In this document: positions 12,010 through 39,284 of the stretch, one piece after another
Numbering within the stretch: the stretch's first letter is position 1
How the letters are laid out: every line of letters starts with the position of its first letter
IMG/VR virus record: IMGVR_UViG_2695420897_000008
Direction: 5' to 3' (one strand)
Source of the DNA: a virus
Taxonomy: Duplodnaviria; Heunggongvirae; Uroviricota; Caudoviricetes
DNA length: 39,495 bases
The notes under the pieces: model-generated
Databases searched by the model: none
Seen by the model: the letters and a program-made list of their open reading frames with translations, nothing else
What the model was told of the DNA's origin: nothing
Program-made: the position numbers and the translations under genes

Positions 12010-12596
12010 TAGCCGCCCCCCAGTAATGACGCCACGTTACCCGTGATGCTTTTCAGCAGTGAAGTATCTGGAGGCTTGGTGGTTTTGTTGCCGCTGTTCT
12101 GTACCGCCGACGTGCTGGCCCCTTCCTTCATGTTGGTTTTATCCGCGACGGAAATCTGCTGTGTCCGGGAGATAAGGACCTCCCTCAGGGTGAGGACGGC
12201 GGACAGGACGTTTTCGGTTGTCTTGTCCGTCGTCACTTCCAGCGCCCGGATCAACATGTTGCTGTACAGTCGTTTACCGGTTACCACATCGAAGGGGATA
12301 CGGCTTTCCTGCAGATCCAGTAGCTCCTGATACGTCTGCTGAGGACTCAGGCCGAGCAGGCTGGTAGCCGTCAGGTTACTGGCAAAATCCAGCAATGCGC
12401 CACCACCGGCGAAACCAACCTCCATCACCACTTCTGACGGTTTTTTATAGGCATGATCAGCGACAGCGGCCCCGACCTCTACCGGATGCTCTGTTATTTC
12501 AAGCATATCTGTATGCTTCTCTGAAATAACAACACAGGGAACAATCATTCCTATTTTTCTGCTCTGCTGATGAAAAAGTGTAGAGAGAATATCCAC
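12009..12596 (-). CDS. Tail protein, 195 aa
   Basis: ORF immediately downstream of the tape measure. Confidence 0.45.
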   Translation of the reverse strand: MDILSTLFHQQSRKIGMIVPCVVISEKHTDMLEITEHPVEVGAAVADHAYKKPSEVVMEVGFAGGGALLDFASNLTATSLLGLSPQQTYQELLDLQESRIPFDVVTGKRLYSNMLIRALEVTTDKTTENVLSAVLTLREVLISRTQQISVADKTNMKEGASTSAVQNSGNKTTKPPDTSLLKSITGNVASLLGGG

Positions 12597-14584
12597 TAAC
12601 CCACCCTCACCTGATTACTTCGCATGACCTGAGCATTTGCAGACTGTTGCCGACGTGCAACCTCATTACCGACAGCGTGCGGATCTCCACCACCGTAAAT
12701 GTGGTAGGTATTTTGCTGGTTAACCTCTGTCACTTTGCCACTAATTCCCGCCACGGCAGCCTTATTAATCAGCTCCCGAGAATAGATATTTCTTCCATTC
12801 TCATGCTGGATAATGCTGCTCATCAATGCTGACATGGTTTGCGGATCGCTCATATTCAGGGCAGCCCGGGGATCCACTCCCAGTCGTTGCGATACAGCCC
12901 TGATATACGCAGTTGTGTTGTTATTATCAGACGCAGGTGCCCAGGTAGAGATAATTTTCTCCACACTGTTTATTCCCCGTCCGGCGTACAGCATTAACTG
13001 ACGAGCAAGAGCCCGTAATCCATCAAAAGCAGTTTCAAATCTGGCAAATCGCCCGCCCGGGCGTTCAAGAGAAGCCCCTGCCTGACCAGCAAAATTAAGG
13101 TTTCCCGGATTGTTATTCCGTTCTCCTCGTTTCGTAGCCTGTGCATGTTGTTCCGGCTCATCATCACCAAACCAGCCGCGTACCGTCCGGCCCACACTGC
13201 GGGGATCGAATCCCCAGTGCTCTTTAATCCAGTCGGCAGTACTGTTAGCGCTGTCTGTAACCATCGGCATCGCTGACGGATTTTCGCTGCCCTGATTAAG
13301 TATCTGTTTGCCGATGCTGACGGCATCAGCCCAGCGGCCATCTTTGATAGCGTTGAGCAGGTCGGCGATCATGTTCAGCATTTTGCTGAATTCGCCCATC
13401 TGGTCGATGAAGTTGCTGAAATCCCACTTCAGGGACCATGATTTGGGGTCAATATTGAGCAGTTTCGCCAGCGCTTTCACCAGGTCGTTAACGGTCGTTT
13501 TAAGGTCACGAACCATCTTCAGCGCGGCATCGACCTCCGGTTTCCACTTGCCCCAGTCAATCAGGCTGTCGCCGCCTTCCTTCCAGGTCTGATAGTCCTC
13601 CCACAGGAGGGCAATACCCGCCGCCAGCGCGGTAATGAGGCCAATCGGCGACATCCAGAACGTACTGTTCAGAATGCGCAGCGCAATCGTCAGTGCGCCA
13701 AACAGCGAGATCAACTCCCGCGTTTGCTTATCCAGCGATTGCCACCAGGTGATAAGGCCTGATGTCCCCTCAATCAGTCTGAAGAACAGCCGCCCGATAA
13801 TATCCCCGAGCGCCAGAATGCCTTTTATGGCTTTCGTCAGGGTCTGCTCGATACGAGGGAAGTTGTCCAGGATATGGCGGCGCAGGGTGTCCAGCGAACC
13901 CGCAAGCCCCCCCGCAAGATTAGAGCCGATTTTGTCACGGGCCATGCCTGCCATCGCGCCAAACTCACGCAGGGAGGTCATAAATTTGTTGGAGCTTCTG
14001 GCCGCCTCGTCAGCATTGAAGCCGATAGCTTTCGCCATTGCGCTGTACTGCCCGGAGAAGCCACCCACACCCCGGCGCATCGCCATAAGGGTATTTTCGT
14101 CAATGCCCAGCATCTGCGCATACTGGTTAGCCCGGTAATACGGCATGCTGCTGAGTTTCTGTCCAACGCCCGTAAAAATAGCGGCCATGTCACGCATGTT
14201 ACCGCTGGCATCACGGGTCTGTACGCCCAGGCGATTCAGAAAGCCTTCTGCACCGGGATTGTTACGAATAAACCGGGATAGGCTTTCCAGAGAAGATCGC
14301 GCAGCGTCCACGCTGCCGCCAACCTGCGAAACCGCATAGCCAATAGACTGAATTCCCTGGACTGTCGCGCCGGTGCGCTGTGACGCCCAGTAAAGATTAT
14401 CCAGGCCGGAGGCGATCTTAGCCGTGAAGGCCACCACGGACAACGCAGCTCCTTCAACAGCCAGCCCCATTTTGATGACATTTGCAGTTGTACCGGCGAG
14501 GACAGAACCGAACTTTTTCGCTCCTGCATCATCCACACTGAAGCCAAGCGAGACGAGGAAATCTTTAATAGTTTCAGCGTTCAT
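12596..14584 (-). CDS. Tail tape measure protein; start placed at ATG 14584 (MNAETIKDF)
   Basis: Long Gly/Ala-rich protein between the tail chaperone and baseplate genes; GAGG RBS upstream of 14584. Confidence 0.75.
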   Translation of the reverse strand: MNAETIKDFLVSLGFSVDDAGAKKFGSVLAGTTANVIKMGLAVEGAALSVVAFTAKIASGLDNLYWASQRTGATVQGIQSIGYAVSQVGGSVDAARSSLESLSRFIRNNPGAEGFLNRLGVQTRDASGNMRDMAAIFTGVGQKLSSMPYYRANQYAQMLGIDENTLMAMRRGVGGFSGQYSAMAKAIGFNADEAARSSNKFMTSLREFGAMAGMARDKIGSNLAGGLAGSLDTLRRHILDNFPRIEQTLTKAIKGILALGDIIGRLFFRLIEGTSGLITWWQSLDKQTRELISLFGALTIALRILNSTFWMSPIGLITALAAGIALLWEDYQTWKEGGDSLIDWGKWKPEVDAALKMVRDLKTTVNDLVKALAKLLNIDPKSWSLKWDFSNFIDQMGEFSKMLNMIADLLNAIKDGRWADAVSIGKQILNQGSENPSAMPMVTDSANSTADWIKEHWGFDPRSVGRTVRGWFGDDEPEQHAQATKRGERNNNPGNLNFAGQAGASLERPGGRFARFETAFDGLRALARQLMLYAGRGINSVEKIISTWAPASDNNNTTAYIRAVSQRLGVDPRAALNMSDPQTMSALMSSIIQHENGRNIYSRELINKAAVAGISGKVTEVNQQNTYHIYGGGDPHAVGNEVARRQQSANAQVMRSNQVRVG

Positions 14585-15214
14585 TATCCTCTCTCCATTT
14601 CTCAATGCGTCGCTGGTTATCCGCTTTTACCGCCAGATGGTCATTCAAGAGAGCAATGTCATACAAATCGACAGAGCCATCTTTAAGTGCTGTATAAGGA
14701 ATTAACCCGGCGTCAACCGGATTGAGAAGGTAGGACAGCCCGTCCGGCAGGCTGTTAAACGTCAGCCCTGTTGCAGGCTCTGCGTCGTGCTGGTAAGGGG
14801 TGTAGGCAAAAAATTTCCCAGCGAATCGGCGACCACCCGCGCCACCAGCTGCAGCATGACCAGCAAGTCAATATCATCAAACATCAGTTCGCCCTGGGTA
14901 AATACCGGCACCCATCCGTCCATATGACGCCGCGATACCACCGCAAGACAGGGATGAATAATCGCATCGGTGTCATCTTCGGTCAGGGAAGACAGTTCCT
15001 CAGCGATACGCGGGAGCATGGTTTCAAACACCGGTTTTAACTGTTCGAATTTCACGGTGTCGATTTTGCCGTCAGCAGGCAAACGGGAGCGAATACTCCC
15101 GAAATCTGACATCATTCCTGCCAGCACCGGCAGAAGTTTGCGGGTCACTTTCAGCTGGTCAAAAACGCTGAGTTTTGCCGTGCGATATTTCACGCCTTTA
15201 ATTTCGAATTCCAT
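14574..15214 (-). CDS. Tail assembly chaperone, predicted -1 frameshift fusion product (G-T type)
   Basis: Slippery heptamer T_TTT_TTG (minus strand, 14813-14807) in the correct zero frame 16 codons before the chaperone stop; the -1 frame is then open for a further 75 codons to a TGA at 14574. Confidence 0.6.
14762..15214 (-). CDS. Tail assembly chaperone, zero-frame product (150 aa)
   Basis: ORF between the tail tube and tape measure genes, the conserved chaperone position. Confidence 0.65.
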   Translation of the reverse strand: MEFEIKGVKYRTAKLSVFDQLKVTRKLLPVLAGMMSDFGSIRSRLPADGKIDTVKFEQLKPVFETMLPRIAEELSSLTEDDTDAIIHPCLAVVSRRHMDGWVPVFTQGELMFDDIDLLVMLQLVARVVADSLGNFLPTPLTSTTQSLQQG

Positions 15215-15217
15215 GCA

Positions 15218-15658
15218 TTAAAACTCCCCGAGAACCTGGTCAATCTTGCCGCAGTCAAACACCCACGGCATCGTATTACCGGTTTTAGCGTTGGCGTTAT
15301 CCGGTTGTTTCTGGAACGCAACACTGCGTGCCGTGATGATGTCGCCGCTGACCTTGTTGCGGATCACGATAACGTTATTCCCCCATGTGGCAGAAGACTG
15401 GCTCTGTGCGTTATACGCCAGCGACAATTTTTTATTTGTCGGTGATGTCTTCAGAAGGTTAACGGTAATCGTCCCGCTTTTATCTGCATGGAGACTGTGC
15501 ATCACTTCGCCATCAGCACCGATGGTCATGGTGTTTTTAGGACCGCCCATCGCAACCACAATCCCCTCTTCAGAACTTGCCGAACCGTACCCGAGGTCAA
15601 TCGAACCTGTCGGCCCGGTCAGCGTCGCAGTGACATCCATAAAAGAATAGGTAGACAT
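15218..15658 (-). CDS. Tail tube protein
   Basis: 146-aa ORF directly downstream of the sheath gene. Confidence 0.65.
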   Translation of the reverse strand: MSTYSFMDVTATLTGPTGSIDLGYGSASSEEGIVVAMGGPKNTMTIGADGEVMHSLHADKSGTITVNLLKTSPTNKKLSLAYNAQSQSSATWGNNVIVIRNKVSGDIITARSVAFQKQPDNANAKTGNTMPWVFDCGKIDQVLGEF

Positions 15659-15668
15659 TCACTTCCCC

Positions 15669-16814
15669 TTAGCGAACAACGTTAATCTGTACGTCAGCGT
15701 AATGAACCGCGCCTGCAAGTTTTATTGCAGCCTGAATCACCGGAGCCTTACGGGCTTCACGTTCTGATTGAGCCTGTTCATCCAGCGGCTGAGCGTATAC
15801 GTAATAACCTTTGGGCAGTGTGTCACCTGATGACAACTGACCAAGGTCGCCCCCGTTCCATACGCCCGGAGCAATCAGTCCATTCTGAACGGCCTGATCC
15901 AGTGATTTTTCAACATTTGATAACAGTCGGGTAATACCGGCTTCAGTCTGGGGAACTTTCGTGGTGCTGGTATAAAGCAGGTTATAGAGGTTGGTCTGCA
16001 CATAATTCTGTAACCAGTCCAGGCCGTGGCGTTCATCAAAGAAATCGCCGTTAGCCATCACTCCCTGCTGGAGGATAGCCGTATCATTCTGGTAGTACAC
16101 GAATACATTGCAGTTTTTTGCATCAAGTGCCGATGCCTGGCTGACTGTCAGTGTTTCATACCCGATACCCGGCTCCTGCTTAAACTTGAGCGTAATCGCG
16201 GTATTACTGCCATTGAAATTAACCGTGAATGCCCGGCCAAATGCAGATAACGCAGCGTATTTATTACCCGATGAATACTGAATAAAACTGCGTGAATATC
16301 CGGCGGTTTTCAGTTTTGATGCCAAATCATCGCTGGATGCAGTCTGCAGGCATTTCTCATCGCTTGTCGTAATCGCCAGAATACGGCTTACAGAAGAGGA
16401 TTCGATCGCCGCAGCCACTTTCAGCCAGTCTGCATCCTGAATATCTTCATCGTCTGCAATCCCCAGCCCATACCATGAAGTATAATCAAGCATGGCATTC
16501 ACAGCCTGCTCCAGCGTCTCAGGCGTGGCCTGTTCGCTGTCTCCCTTCGTTTTCACCCAACGACCAACAAAAACCTCCTGAGGTTTCGGTGATTGAGAGA
16601 AAAACACCTGCGCAGCCTTATATTCTGGTGATTCCACGCCAAAATCTTTTCCAATATCTTCCGCGGCAGAATAACGGCGAATGCGCTCACTTACCGGAAT
16701 GATTGTGGACGGGCCGAGAATGAGTAATGCACCAAAATTTCGCCCTGATGCTGCACGCGGCGACATGATCACATCAACATTAACAACGTTTGATACAGGC
16801 AAGCCCTGTGCCAT
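15669..16814 (-). CDS. Contractile tail sheath protein
   Basis: 381-aa ORF upstream of tube and chaperone in conserved sheath-tube-chaperone-tape measure order. Confidence 0.7.
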
Positions 16815-36394: not shown

Positions 36395-38458
36395 ATGTCC
36401 AATATACTATGGGGCGACCTGGAAACCTATTGCGAAATCCCTATTACGAACGGTACCCATGCGTATGCCGAAGGCGTTGAAGTGATGCTTTTCGCATGGG
36501 CTATCAACGACGGGCCAGTAAACGTGTGGGATATCACTGCCGGTGGTGGTATTCCACACGGCTTATACGAAGCAATCGCAGACCCTGAAACCCTGCTTTA
36601 TTTCCATAACTCTCACTTCGACCGCACCGTTCTGCGTTATGCAATGCCGCGCCTGGCACCGCCAGTCGAACGTTGGCGCGACACAATGGTGCAGGCGCTG
36701 GCGCACGGTCTCCCGGGGTCTCTGGGGGAACTCTGCGAAGTACTAGGCGTCCCGCAAGACAAAGCGAAGGACAAAGAAGGTAAAGCGCTGATCCAGCTGT
36801 TCTGTAAGCCACGCCCGAAAAACAGCAAACTGCGCCGGGCCACCAGCAAAACCCACCCGGAAGAATGGCGGCGCTTTGTTGCTTACGCCGGACTGGATAT
36901 CGAGGCAATGCGCGAAGTCTATAAACGTCTGCCGAAGTGGAATTATCAGGGGACAGAACTGGCGCTCTGGCATCGTGATCAGCAGATCAATGACCGGGGC
37001 GTCTGCATGGACGTGGAACTCGCACGCGCTGCGATCGACGCGGTAGACCAGGAACAAAAGCGCCTGGCAAAGCGTACACAGGAAATGACTGATGGCGAAG
37101 TGCAGGCAGCCACACAACGAGACGCGTTGATTAAGCACATTGTTGAATCCTACGGTGTGGAGCTACCAGACATGCAACGCAGTACTCTGGAACGTCGTAT
37201 TGCCGACCCCGATTTACCATCTGCCGTGAAAGAACTGCTGGCTATCCGCCTGCAGGCCAGTACTACCAGCACCAGTAAATACAAGGCACTGATGAAAGGC
37301 GTAAGCCACGACGGGCGCTTACGCGGTACGCTACAGTTCTGCGGGGCGTCACGTACCGGTCGTTGGGCCGGACGGCTATTCCAGCCCCAGAACCTTCCCC
37401 GCCCTTCACTAAAACAGGAACAAATAGACGAAGGCATCGAAGCACTGAAAGCCGGATGTGCAGACCTGCTGTTTGACAATATCATGGAACTAACCAGTTC
37501 AGCGTTACGTGGCTGCATTATCGCGCCAACAGGCAAAAAGCTGGTGGTAAGTGACTTGTCGAACATTGAAGGCCGTATGCTGGCATGGCTGGCGGGAGAA
37601 GAATGGAAACTGAATGCATTCAGAGAGTACGACGCCGGAACGGGTCCGGACTTATATAAACTGGCGTATGCAAAAGCTTTCGATATTGCACCAGATGATG
37701 TTGATAAACACATGCGTCAGATCGGTAAAGTCATGGAACTCGGTCTGGGTTATGGTGGTGGTGTGTCGGCCTTCATCACTTTTGCACTGGTTTACGGTCT
37801 CGATCTCGACGAGCTGGCGAACGCCGCACTACCAAACATTCCCCGCGATGTTATCCGCGAGGCGAAAAGCTGGTACGACGAATCGGTTAAACGCAAGTCA
37901 ACCTACGGGCTTTCTGAACGGGTATTTATCGCCTGCGACTCACTTAAACGTCTCTGGCGCCGGGCGCATCCCGCGACCTGTGATTTCTGGTACGAACTGG
38001 AGCGCACCGTCCGCACTGCAATCGCCACACCGCAAAAAACATTGTATTGCGGTTATCTTAAAATCCGCCGCGATGGCGCGTGGCTGCGCATACAGCTACC
38101 ATCCGGACGCGCTGTATGCTACCCGTCTCCGGTTATCGAAAAAGGGAATATCACCTACATGGGGGTTAACTCTTATTCGCGTAAATGGCAACGACTCAAA
38201 ACCTACGGCGGAAAGCTGGTGGAGAACATCACCCAGGCGGCCGCCCGCGACATTCTGGCCGGAAACATGCCGCTTATCGAAGATGCCGGTTACAGCATTG
38301 TGCTGACGGTACACGACGAGGTGATCACCGAAGCACCTGACACAGAAGATTTCAACGATAAAGCGCTTTCCGCGCTTCTCTCCACTGACCCCGAATGGGC
38401 GCCCGATATCCCACTGAACGCTGGCGGTTTTGAGGCGTACCACTACAAAAAAGATTGA
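36395..38458 (+). CDS. Family A DNA polymerase with N-terminal 3'-5' exonuclease domain, no 5'-3' exonuclease domain
   Basis: 687 aa; Exo I motif WGDLETYCE, polymerase motifs [24 protein letters not shown] and TVHDEV. Confidence 0.8.
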
Positions 38459-38522: not shown

Positions 38523-39284
38523 ATGCAGGAACTAACTGAAATGCCGATCACCTATCCATACCCGAGAGAAACTTTTCCTGACTTTTTGAGGGAGTGTGGG
38601 TTCACCAATTTTTCCCACGAACAGCGTGAGACTTGTGACTGCTATCGTTTAACGAATGGCGTAATTGTTAACCTTTACACCACCCGGACCATTCAGTTTC
38701 AAGGTAACCCTCAAGAACGTCCCAATGTTGAAACTGCAATAATGACCCATTTAGGAACGCCGCCCACGGCAACACCACTAGCCGTAGAACAGCCATCTGA
38801 GCTCCCCAAAAAGATATTCATTGTTCACGGCCATGACCATACTGCAAAGGAGCAACTTGAGCTAATCCTTCATAAACTTGGATTACCAGACCATTTCATT
38901 TTGCAGAATACGGGAGGGACTGGACTCACCATTATTGAAGAGCTTGAACGTGAAATTGGGCAAGGACAAACTGCTACCCGTTTCGGGATTGTTCTTTTGA
39001 CACCTGATGATATGGGATACTCAAAGCGCGCCGGTGAAGCAGAAATCCAACCCCGCGCAAGACAGAACGTTGTACTCGAGATGGGTATGCTTCTTTCGTC
39101 CTTAGGGCGCAGCAATGTAGCAATCCTTCAGAAACAGCACCTAGAACAGCCTTCTGATGCTAACGGGATTTTGTATCTGAATTTCAACGACCATGTACGT
39201 GAAACAGTTCCTCGTCTAGTGCAACGGTTACAAAATTCTGGTTTCGAATTTACACAAGCTCAAATAGCTAACGCTTCCTCGTAA
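38523..39284 (+). CDS. Protein with C-terminal TIR-like nucleotide-binding domain (COG4271/PF10137-like) and an N-terminal domain of unknown function
   Basis: Motifs KIFIVHGHD, VLLTPDD and RARQNVVLEMG match the TIR-like family as remembered; AAAGGA RBS; followed by a terminator. Confidence 0.55.
   Translation: MQELTEMPITYPYPRETFPDFLRECGFTNFSHEQRETCDCYRLTNGVIVNLYTTRTIQFQGNPQERPNVETAIMTHLGTPPTATPLAVEQPSELPKKIFIVHGHDHTAKEQLELILHKLGLPDHFILQNTGGTGLTIIEELEREIGQGQTATRFGIVLLTPDDMGYSKRAGEAEIQPRARQNVVLEMGMLLSSLGRSNVAILQKQHLEQPSDANGILYLNFNDHVRETVPRLVQRLQNSGFEFTQAQIANASS

Follow-up and report, generated by a model that had tools for sequence, protein, structure and literature searches.

A 39,495-nt stretch of viral DNA (hereafter the window) carries a tail assembly chaperone gene that, judging from sequence comparison and with a probability that we put at roughly 0.88, is decoded by programmed −1 ribosomal frameshifting of the lambda G/GT and P2 E/E+E′ type. 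The element is a temperate myovirus, SEN34-like (Brunovirus-like), that resides as a prophage in E. coli. The initial annotation had proposed the conserved G/GT arrangement of tailed phages for this gene; every sequence-level feature of that arrangement was found, and the support is comparative.

The chaperone gene lies within a complete contractile-tail module

The chaperone gene is flanked by the tube and tape measure genes in a complete contractile-tail module, of which the following genes are relevant here.

15669–16814, minus strand: tail sheath gene (Pfam DUF3383, E 1e-100; phrog_205 'tail sheath', E 1.4e-135)
15218–15658, minus strand: tail tube gene, directly upstream of the chaperone gene (PF11681, E 8.8e-61; labelled Phage_Tube_PhiTE, and DUF3277 by PGAP)
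15214–14762, minus strand: tail assembly chaperone, zero frame, 150 aa plus TGA at 14764–14762 (ORF listing and translation)
12596–14584, minus strand: tape measure gene, 662 aa (phrog_2276 'tail length tape measure protein', E 9e-284)

The zero-frame protein matches Pfam PF21822 (Phage_TAC_15) over residues 6–138 at 108.3 bits, above the gathering threshold (cutoff 22), as well as phrog_1688 'tail assembly chaperone' (E 3.6e-65), and PGAP names it 'phage tail assembly chaperone'. This 150-aa chaperone is presumably the short, abundant product. No NCBIfam model matches the chaperone or its extension, a sequence search of solved structures gave no match below E 0.8, and the predicted structure of the 213-aa fusion described below (51-row alignment, first row P0001) was unusable, with a mean pLDDT of 42 and a pTM of 0.27.

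The earlier claim that the tail module was recently functional is reasonable: deposited vB_EcoM phage genomes match the region at 97.5% identity over 82% of the query and hold near-identical modules, and the relative SEN34 is an inducible, plaque-forming myovirus. A frameshifted invertase gene, also present in the prophage, is the counterpoint.

Three overlapping heptamers form a compound slippery run

The geometry of the candidate shift site was read directly from the window.

14807–14813, minus strand: heptamer T_TTT_TTG at codons 135–136 of 150, identical to the P2 E/E+E′ shift site
14807–14819, minus strand: compound slippery run GGGAAATTTTTTG, 13 nt, made of three overlapping in-frame heptamers

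The minus strand reads ...CTG GGA AAT TTT TTG CCT..., with six T at 14813–14808 and G at 14807. Counted from the ATG at 15214, the zero-frame codons are AAT (14815–13), TTT (14812–10) and TTG (14809–07), and the heptamer is therefore phased as T_TTT_TTG. This confirms the initial annotation, which had placed such a heptamer at 14813–14807 on the minus strand, in the zero frame close to the chaperone gene's 3′ end. Its description of a single canonical heptamer held only in part, since T_TTT_TTG (14813–07) is overlapped by two further in-frame heptamers that it had missed, G_GGA_AAT (14819–13) and A_AAT_TTT (14816–10). A_AAT_TTT has at least as strong a claim as T_TTT_TTG to be the heptamer that would slip; among 26 representative relatives, X_XXT_TTT and T_TTT_TTN each occur in 18.

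Three X_XXY_YYZ heptamers fall inside a 103-nt interval that is open in both frames. One in-frame heptamer by itself is nothing unusual: 40 were counted in the 46 long ORFs of the window (~12,000 codons). In only five of these 40 the −1 frame passes the zero-frame stop, and three of the five are those of the GGGAAATTTTTTG run. Two other heptamers were considered and set aside as not comparable signals: GGGGGGC at the end of the gene at 12596–12009, where the −1 frame just enters the frame of the next gene, and TTTTTTC at ~885, which sits in the broken invertase gene. In E. coli reporters, all three heptamers of the run are measurably shift-prone (Sharma et al. 2014, Table S3), each alone being weak when no stimulator is supplied (0.07–0.12% vs a background of ~0.055%), and even a strong pseudoknot stimulates U_UUU_UUG little (0.77%; Sharma et al. 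2014).

The −1 frame encodes a DUF6889 extension

Between the tube and tape measure genes lie two overlapping ORFs, a layout of the class described by Xu et al. 2004, and the second is in the −1 frame relative to the first.

14574–14807, minus strand: −1 extension, 77 codons (AYTPYQ...REDNER) plus TGA at 14576–14574 (translation)
14765–14806, minus strand: dual-coding overlap, in which the last 14 zero-frame codons PTPLTSTTQSLQQG lie over the first −1 codons
14583–14699, minus strand: DUF6889 domain, fusion residues 173–211 (Pfam PF21829, E 8.9e-20)

The first codon after a −1 slip is GCC (14807–05), and the extension, when joined to chaperone residues 1–136 (or 1–135), gives a 213-aa fusion. 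The −1 frame is open as initially annotated; the count of 75 further codons is corrected to 77, up to the TGA at 14576–14574. That the frame ends just inside the tape measure gene was borne out: because the tape measure ATG is at 14584–14582 (the same start as in PGAP) and the extension TGA at 14576–14574, the two overlap by 11 nt. Neither ATG nor GTG is found among the 97 −1 codons that are open, and a TTG first appears 46 codons past the slip, inside the domain.

The match to PF21829 covers the full model length at 70.6 bits, above the gathering threshold (cutoff 23.9), and phrog_4364 matches fusion residues 161–213 at about E 1.8e-23. As homology evidence, these two matches argue decisively against a chance origin of the −1 ORF.

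Layout, phasing and coding are conserved across relatives

To compare relatives, 52 loci were assembled, comprising 18 phage records, 33 genomes of different species and the window itself; the genome scan for relatives used a 5-sequence alignment. The loci are spread over Gamma- and Betaproteobacterial hosts. Relatives lacking an open −1 frame had been named in the initial annotation as evidence that would count against a frameshift, and they were looked for: 49 of the 52 loci, with chaperone identity down to 27%, retain an intact homologous −1 ORF that terminates at the tape measure start, and the copies that have lost it sit in visibly decayed prophages, for example in an Arsenophonus symbiont. 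The family-wide layout, observed directly, is thus kept even where the sequence diverges.

The run itself is also retained. The exact 13-nt run is present in all 80 close viral contigs (80/80) and in most enterobacterial relatives, while across the comparison set T_TTT occurs at the homologous Phe codon in 51/52 loci and a canonical heptamer in 47/52. Among the 26 representatives below 70% identity, 25 have NNT_TTT at the homologous Phe codon, GC-rich Burkholderia phages included, whose codon usage predicts this pattern at about 3%; the joint expectation is ~1e-25 when lineages are treated as independent. As a comparative signal, the NNT_TTT pattern indicates nucleotide-level selection on the run. 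At least one canonical heptamer was found in 23 of the 26 representatives. Because the remaining three carry only a U_UUU tetramer, the frameshift signal is not strictly a heptamer family-wide.

Protein conservation changes frame at the same place. Mean pairwise identity over the 12 codons that precede the run was 0.47 in the zero frame vs 0.25 in the −1 frame; over the 12 codons that follow it, the values were 0.20 (zero), 0.32 (−1) and 0.18 (+1 control). Conservation therefore switches from the zero to the −1 frame at the T-run.

These observations bear on whether the DUF6889 ORF could be a separate small gene, with translation beginning at a non-AUG codon (CTG 14738) or re-initiating past the chaperone stop, and with no frameshift at all. 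PGAP annotates it so, starting a 54-aa 'DUF6889 family protein' at CTG 14738 (14738–14574) in hundreds of E. coli genomes; this CTG lies 24–26 nt past the chaperone stop, and the Pfam domain itself begins downstream of that stop. Termination-reinitiation is known in tightly packed phage operons. However, ATG and GTG are absent from the −1 ORF, the CTG lacks a convincing SD before it, stand-alone database entries for the ORF vary from 43 to 78 aa, with the eight examined beginning at five different points and gene callers other than PGAP choosing at least four different starts, and the phrog_4364 match begins at or just upstream of CTG 14738. Moreover, −1 frame conservation starts right at the run, ~45 nt upstream of the chaperone stop, and synonymous-site conservation of the slippery run would not be needed by a separate gene. 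We consider the separate-gene reading very unlikely. On this comparative evidence, DUF6889 is almost certainly the frameshift-encoded C-terminal domain of the Phage_TAC_15 chaperone and not a gene of its own.

A change at the RNA level, in which polymerase stutter on T6 adds one U to some transcripts so that the fusion is read in a single frame, appears highly improbable. Efficient transcriptional slippage generally needs runs of ~8–9 or longer. The T6 stretch here is a homopolymer, one extra U suffices, and a public assembly with T7 indeed encodes the fusion as one ORF; UUUUUUU is, in addition, avoided in E. coli genes, partly owing to transcriptional slippage (Sharma et al. 2014). Nevertheless, the same −1 ORF is found in phages of Burkholderia, Acinetobacter and Edwardsiella that have T4 only (CCTTTTA, GATTTTA and TCTTTTA), where stutter is implausible, and the conserved feature is phased (NNT_TTT), which fits tRNA re-pairing and not the polymerase. 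Finally, the reading of the heptamer and open −1 frame as chance or relic, with the 150-aa protein as sole product, could draw on the commonness of in-frame heptamers in the window and on some prophage decay, such as the invertase, but is effectively refuted by the conservation data, the −1 ORF matching a Pfam family far over the cutoff, being lost only in visibly decayed prophages and recurring within near-identical modules of deposited phage genomes.

An upstream SD-like pentamer is a candidate stimulator

An RNA structure lying downstream from the slippery site, which the initial annotation had suggested looking for, was neither present in the window folds nor conserved. Folds of the 67 and 117 nt that follow the run had z values of +0.08 and −1.2 (not significant), the first 20 nt after the run were unpaired in the MFE fold, and no hairpin or pseudoknot was seen 4–10 nt past the heptamer. 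The consensus that RNAalifold computed from 37 distinct relatives was essentially empty, with a mean z of −0.12.

A candidate stimulator was located on the other side of the run.

14833–14837, minus strand: GGUGG, SD-like pentamer

It lies 14–17 nt upstream and fits the Sharma et al. 2014 criteria; the range considered for an SD-like element was 6–17 nt before the motif. Such an element is present in 17/26 relatives vs a 14% background, a difference confounded by conserved R-V-V codons and shared ancestry, and a stimulatory role for GGUGG is only suggestive.

Comparison with known frameshifting systems

P2 offers the closest parallel. According to Christie et al. 2002 as cited in PMC3091744, P2 E/E+E′ shifts at TTTTTTG, and that citation reports no downstream structure. 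P2 (RefSeq NC_001895) is likewise an E. coli temperate myovirus, in which the chaperone gene is flanked by FII (tube) and T (tape measure); the two sites share T_TTT_TTG in the same phase, no downstream RNA structure is reported there or was found here, GGTGG lies upstream of both, and the −1 extension enters the tape measure gene by 8 nt in P2 (T) and 11 nt here. The two differ in product sizes (91 and 142 aa in P2, 150 and 213 aa here), in the number of heptamers (one in P2, three overlapping here) and in Pfam families (PF10109, Phage_TAC_7, and PF06528, Phage_P2_GpE, in P2 vs PF21822 and PF21829 here). Membership in the P2 gpE/gpE+E′ family was rejected for want of sequence homology or a shared Pfam family: the chaperones gave a BLASTP E of 0.7, the extensions gave no alignment, and a Pfam scan of the window proteins found no PF10109 or PF06528 match.

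The functional model comes from lambda gpG/gpGT (Levin et al. 1993; Xu et al. 2004, 2013, 2014; summarised in PMC5009743), in which, according to that summary, the G part binds the tape measure and the T part binds the tail tube subunit, at a ratio of ~30:1. Lambda resembles the predicted arrangement here in that a single start codon, shortly upstream of the tape measure gene, yields an abundant short chaperone and, rarely, a −1 fusion; its tail is non-contractile whereas the module here is contractile, and the Pfam scan found no lambda G or T family. The lambda site G_GGA_AAG differs from G_GGA_AAT in the last base alone, yet an A-site AAG (lambda) is far more slippery in E. coli than AAU (here): with no stimulator, IS911 stimulators and the IS3 pseudoknot, respectively, Sharma et al. 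2014 reported 0.28, 3.8 and 43% for G_GGA_AAG and 0.07, 0.11 and 1.05% for G_GGA_AAU. E. coli dnaX and IS911/IS3 likewise show heptamer tandem slippage in E. coli, and an upstream SD-like element, for which GGUGG is the candidate here, is a known stimulator in dnaX and IS911; unlike the present run, dnaX and IS911/IS3 have heptamers ending in AAG and a downstream hairpin or pseudoknot, which is neither present nor conserved here.

True homologues were found in Klebsiella phage Mulock (MN098327), whose chaperone is 60% identical, whose run is also GGGAAATTTTTTG and whose extension spans 78 codons, and in Burkholderia phage Magia (NC_070954), where a partial tblastn match gave 42% identity over chaperone residues 71–135, with CCCTTTT at the homologous position and a 79-codon extension. 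In both, curators set a joined CDS named 'tape measure chaperone frameshift product', a bioinformatic annotation, whereas the E. coli prophage copy in RefSeq is two separate genes. A literature search for 'DUF6889' and for a description of the Mulock frameshift found no papers.

Proposed mechanism of chaperone decoding

Under the frameshift reading, most ribosomes would read to the TGA at 14764–14762 and yield the 150-aa chaperone, while a minority would slip back one nucleotide within GGGAAAUUUUUUG (14819–14807), the tRNA-Phe on UUU re-pairing with UUU. Slipped ribosomes would then read 77 more codons in the −1 frame to give a 213-aa chaperone-DUF6889 fusion, predicted at ~24 kDa with the junction peptide ...SLGNFFAYTPYQ... 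or ...SLGNFLAYTPYQ.... The slip could occur on A_AAU_UUU, where Phe occupies the A site, on U_UUU_UUG, where it occupies the P site, or on both; slippage on either G_GGA_AAU or A_AAU_UUU would give the junction peptide VVADSLGNFFAYTPYQHDAEPATGLTFNSLPDGLSYLLNPVDAGLIPYTALK, and one at U_UUU_UUG the junction ...GNFLAYTPYQ.... If lambda gpG/gpGT is a guide, the N-terminal part common to both products would coat the tape measure protein and the rare C-terminal domain would recruit the tube protein, with translation setting a fixed low ratio of the two products.

It is conceivable, if doubtful, that the family signal is a minimal phased U_UUU (tRNA-Phe) site plus the upstream SD-like element, to which enterobacterial members add three stacked heptamers. 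If so, the window run would shift at more than one position and produce isoforms …GNFF-AYTP… and …GNFL-AYTP…, and the tetramer-only members, namely Edwardsiella phage ZHS, Burkholderia phage vB_E192a and three Pseudomonadota MAGs, would be natural cases of tetramer-driven −1 frameshifting without downstream structure.

Implications for annotation and for the phage family

The locus is very probably, on the sequence evidence, an ordinary example of textbook phage recoding whose gene RefSeq mis-splits into two, and it leaves the understanding of the frameshift mechanism unchanged. Of 5,426 complete E. coli genomes, at least 309 carry the 'DUF6889 family protein', which many records also call 'NTP pyrophosphohydrolase'. 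If the two CDSs were merged under a ribosomal_slippage qualifier, hundreds of records would be corrected and DUF6889 would gain a function, as the probable counterpart of lambda's T and P2's E′. The contractile-tailed SEN34-like and related phages of Entero-, Acineto-, Burkholderia and Ralstonia hosts would thereby provide one more independent chaperone family that keeps the frameshift.

A compound slippery run close to the tail chaperone gene's 3′ end

Three nucleotides separate the chaperone ORF from the tail tube gene upstream of it; the ORF is followed by the tape measure gene, and matched Phage_TAC_15 (PF21822) with 108 bits (cutoff 22) and phrog_1688 with an E-value of 4e-65. The features of this region, all on the minus strand, are as follows.

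16814-15669, minus: sheath gene (DUF3383; phrog 'tail sheath')
15658-15218, minus: tail tube gene (Pfam PF11681, E 9e-61)
15214-14762, minus: tail assembly chaperone ORF, ATG at 15214 to TGA at 14764-14762, 150 codons (Phage_TAC_15)
14837-14833, minus: GGUGG, candidate SD-like stimulator upstream of the run
14819-14807, minus: compound slippery run GGGAAATTTTTTG, 13 nt, three overlapping in-phase heptamers
14819-14813, minus: heptamer G_GGA_AAT, in phase with the chaperone frame
14816-14810, minus: heptamer A_AAT_TTT, in phase with the chaperone frame
14813-14807, minus: heptamer T_TTT_TTG, in phase with the chaperone frame
14584-12596, minus: tape measure gene, from its ATG (phrog_2276, E 9e-284)

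Chaperone codons 133-136 are GGA AAT TTT TTG, which places T_TTT_TTG in phase at 14813-14807, precisely where the initial annotation had located a programmed −1 frameshift signal; the in-phase G_GGA_AAT and A_AAT_TTT were absent from that annotation. From T_TTT_TTG, the −1 frame runs for 77 sense codons, slightly more than the 75 counted previously, and stops at TGA 14576-14574, 11 nt beyond the tape measure ATG and thus just inside that gene, as had been proposed. The −1 ORF contains no ATG or GTG, and matched DUF6889 (PF21829) with 70.6 bits (cutoff 23.9) and phrog_4364 with an E-value of 2e-23. Taking together this domain match, the conservation in relatives and the frame switch described below, a programmed −1 ribosomal frameshift within 14819-14807, of the G/GT tail chaperone type, is the reading that the sequence supports, with a probability of roughly 0.88.

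The conserved reading frame changes at the run

We compared 52 diverse loci, comprising the window, 33 usable loci from bacterial genomes (one genome per species) and 18 annotated phage records (chaperone identity 27-89%), whose hosts include Yersinia, Salmonella, Klebsiella, Hafnia, Citrobacter, Bordetella, Edwardsiella, Providencia, Acinetobacter, Burkholderia and Ralstonia; 80 near-identical viral contigs formed a separate set. As the initial annotation had anticipated for related phages, the −1 frame is open: an intact homologous ORF of about 75-80 codons, ending at the tape measure start, was found at 49 of the 52 loci. Among the remaining three, a stop interrupts the −1 frame of an Arsenophonus symbiont copy, and the other two are prophages that have been rearranged or truncated. 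Within the 52 loci, extensions that are interrupted, truncated or fused to other sequence occur only in these (L124, Arsenophonus MAG; L112, Enterobacter sp. R1; L121, Izhakiella australiensis), which look like decaying prophages and so fit an extension required only for as long as the tail module is used. The exact 13-nt run is unchanged in all 80 close contigs; the extension has 77 or 80 codons in 76 of them, leaves the contig in three and is truncated in one.

NNT_TTT stands at the homologous Phe codon in 51 of the 52 loci and in 25 of 26 representatives below 70% identity, for which local codon usage predicts 3-29% per lineage (about 3% in the GC-rich Burkholderia, Edwardsiella and Ralstonia phages). 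With the lineages taken as independent, the joint expectation is about 1e-25; this overstates the significance, not the direction. At least one canonical heptamer is present in 23 of the 26.

Over the 12 codons upstream of the run, mean pairwise identity was 0.47 in the zero frame versus 0.25 in the −1 frame; over the 12 codons downstream the −1 frame reached 0.32 and the zero frame 0.20, no better than the +1 control (0.18). The conserved protein frame therefore changes from zero to −1 at the run, which indicates that the −1 frame is under selection from the slip site on. The selection sets in some 45 nt ahead of the chaperone stop, which speaks against independent initiation or re-initiation.

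Two Flavobacteriia-assigned records carry tail modules clearly related to the enterobacterial prophage: Elizabethkingia phage EKP1 (about 70% nucleotide identity, same run) and a Chryseobacterium sp. 18061 contig (69% chaperone protein identity, run one base off, CGGAAATTTTTTG). There seems reason to doubt either the host assigned or the purity of the sample.

Database annotation of the −1 ORF and alternative explanations

In ETEC H10407, as in many other genomes, RefSeq PGAP annotates a 54-aa 'DUF6889 family protein' from a CTG (14738), a model under which DUF6889 would be translated separately from a non-AUG start. This is improbable, being contradicted by the frame-switch data and by selection on the slippery run. 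Moreover, stand-alone entries range from 43 to 78 aa, with five different start points among the eight read; the lack of ATG or GTG, the CTG start and the inconsistent starts are typical of a frameshift extension that has been made to fit a gene model. Many NCBI records, and some Klebsiella phage genomes, name the stand-alone ORF (14574-14738, minus; database proteins P0122-P0148) 'NTP pyrophosphohydrolase'; no domain match backs this name, which appears to be a propagated misnomer. No paper mentioning the DUF6889 family was found.

Transcriptional slippage on T6 is slightly less credible still, since relatives sharing the −1 ORF have T4 only and the conserved feature is phased. In one public assembly (L134, Logan SRR23924998 contig, 1898-1912), T7 replaces T6, so that chaperone and DUF6889 are called as a single 213-aa ORF (P0001; …GNFFAYTP…); the extra T is either a sequencing error in the homopolymer or a genuine +1T mutation, with which only the fusion would be made.

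A chance or relic heptamer is effectively excluded. Lone in-frame heptamers are not rare, with 40 in the 46 long ORFs of the window; at only five of these does the −1 frame stay open past the stop of the zero frame, and the run accounts for three. The other two were rejected, one merely entering the next gene and one lying in a broken invertase gene. A recognised protein family in the −1 ORF is a stronger argument against chance than the heptamer itself.

Proposed mechanism, slipping heptamer and stimulators

Under the lambda G/GT model, most ribosomes terminate, giving a chaperone coating for the tape measure protein; the few percent that slip to −1 append a domain by which the tube subunit is recruited, and the finished virion contains neither product (PMC5009743). 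For the proposed frameshift in the window, termination at the zero-frame stop would give the 150-aa chaperone and a −1 shift a 213-aa fusion (residues 1-136 plus 77), with a predicted junction of GNFL/AYTP upon shifting on U_UUU_UUG, or GNFF/AYTP on A_AAU_UUU or G_GGA_AAU.

On the sequence, any of the three heptamers may be the one that slips. Across the family, X_XXT_TTT would put Phe in the A site and T_TTT_TTN would put it in the P site; each motif is found in 18 of the 26 representatives, and U_UUU is the sole invariant. Reporter data from E. coli (Sharma et al., 2014, Table S3) give frameshifting without stimulator, with IS911 stimulators and with the IS3 pseudoknot of 0.07, 0.11 and 1.05% for G_GGA_AAU, 0.07, 0.36 and 11.4% for A_AAU_UUU, and 0.12, 0.25 and 0.77% for U_UUU_UUG. 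The P2 precedent points to U_UUU_UUG, and slippage may occur at more than one position.

The E. coli myovirus P2 makes E and E+E′ through a −1 shift at TTTTTTG without downstream structure (PMC3091744). Its RefSeq record, in which the shift site is annotated, confirmed the GGT TTT TTG phase and an 8-nt overlap of the −1 extension with gene T. The P2 proteins belong to other families (PF10109, PF06528) and have no similarity to those of the window, so P2 is an analogue, not a relative. As in P2, no RNA structure was found downstream of the run, where the initial annotation had suggested looking: the first 20 nt are unpaired in the MFE fold, fold z-scores were +0.08 (67 nt) and −1.2 (117 nt), and the consensus fold of 37 distinct relatives was empty (mean z −0.12).

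Upstream, GGUGG (14837-14833) lies within the 6-17 nt that Sharma et al. (2014) specify for SD-like elements, relative to G_GGA_AAT and A_AAT_TTT. Such elements occupy this interval in 17 of 26 representatives versus 14% of positions in the same loci, these lineages being related. Because of this relatedness, and because GGUGG falls within conserved Arg-Val-Val codons in the enterobacterial clade, we regard it as a lead only. In P2 gene E (L136, 670-685), GGTGG lies just upstream of T6G, the window counterpart being GGGTGGTCG; one type of SD-like pentamer may assist both sites.

State of the prophage

Over the queried 1.4 kb, the tail/head region is 100% identical to prophages of ETEC H10407, O103:H2 12009 and others, and it is present in 368 of 5,426 complete E. 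coli genomes (query coverage at least 80% in 309). A 24-kb query matched the deposited phages vB_EcoM-606R2 and -611R5 with 97.5% identity over 82% of its length, and SEN34, described in its paper as mitomycin-inducible and plaque-forming with a contractile tail, is 83% identical across the morphogenetic region. The proposal of a recently functional tail module thus holds insofar as the module is of a type that builds working tails, and is tempered by a frameshifted invertase elsewhere in the prophage; an intact frameshift site does not prove whole-prophage viability.

578-1130, plus: broken Hin/Pin-type serine invertase gene (Pfam Resolvase, E 5e-36)

The break is an apparent 1-nt deletion near 876 (…CCA ATG GCC GTT TCT TTT TTC…), called against the intact sequence presumably expected from the Hin/Pin family. 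An in-frame T_TTT_TTC heptamer lies there, and the C-terminal part is read on in the −1 frame as far as TGA 1128-1130. The annotation of the H10407 homologue reads 'recombinase family protein, frameshifted'; the gene in the window is most probably a pseudogene, pointing to some decay of the prophage. In the early region, a 253-aa ORF (38523-39284, plus) with a CAP12/Pycsar-effector TIR domain (PF10137, E 3e-31) sits beside the gene for a family A DNA polymerase (36395-38458) and is possibly an anti-phage defence gene carried by the prophage.

Recognition in homologues

The SEN34 paper does not mention frameshifting. Klebsiella phage Mulock has a homologous gene with an identical 13-nt run and Burkholderia phage Magia one with CCCTTTT at that position, and both deposits carry a joined CDS, 'tape measure chaperone frameshift product'. 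The probable frameshift is thus of a well-known type, already recognised bioinformatically in homologues and mis-annotated in RefSeq; the useful outcome is the reinterpretation of DUF6889 as a probable frameshift-encoded domain of Phage_TAC_15 chaperones.
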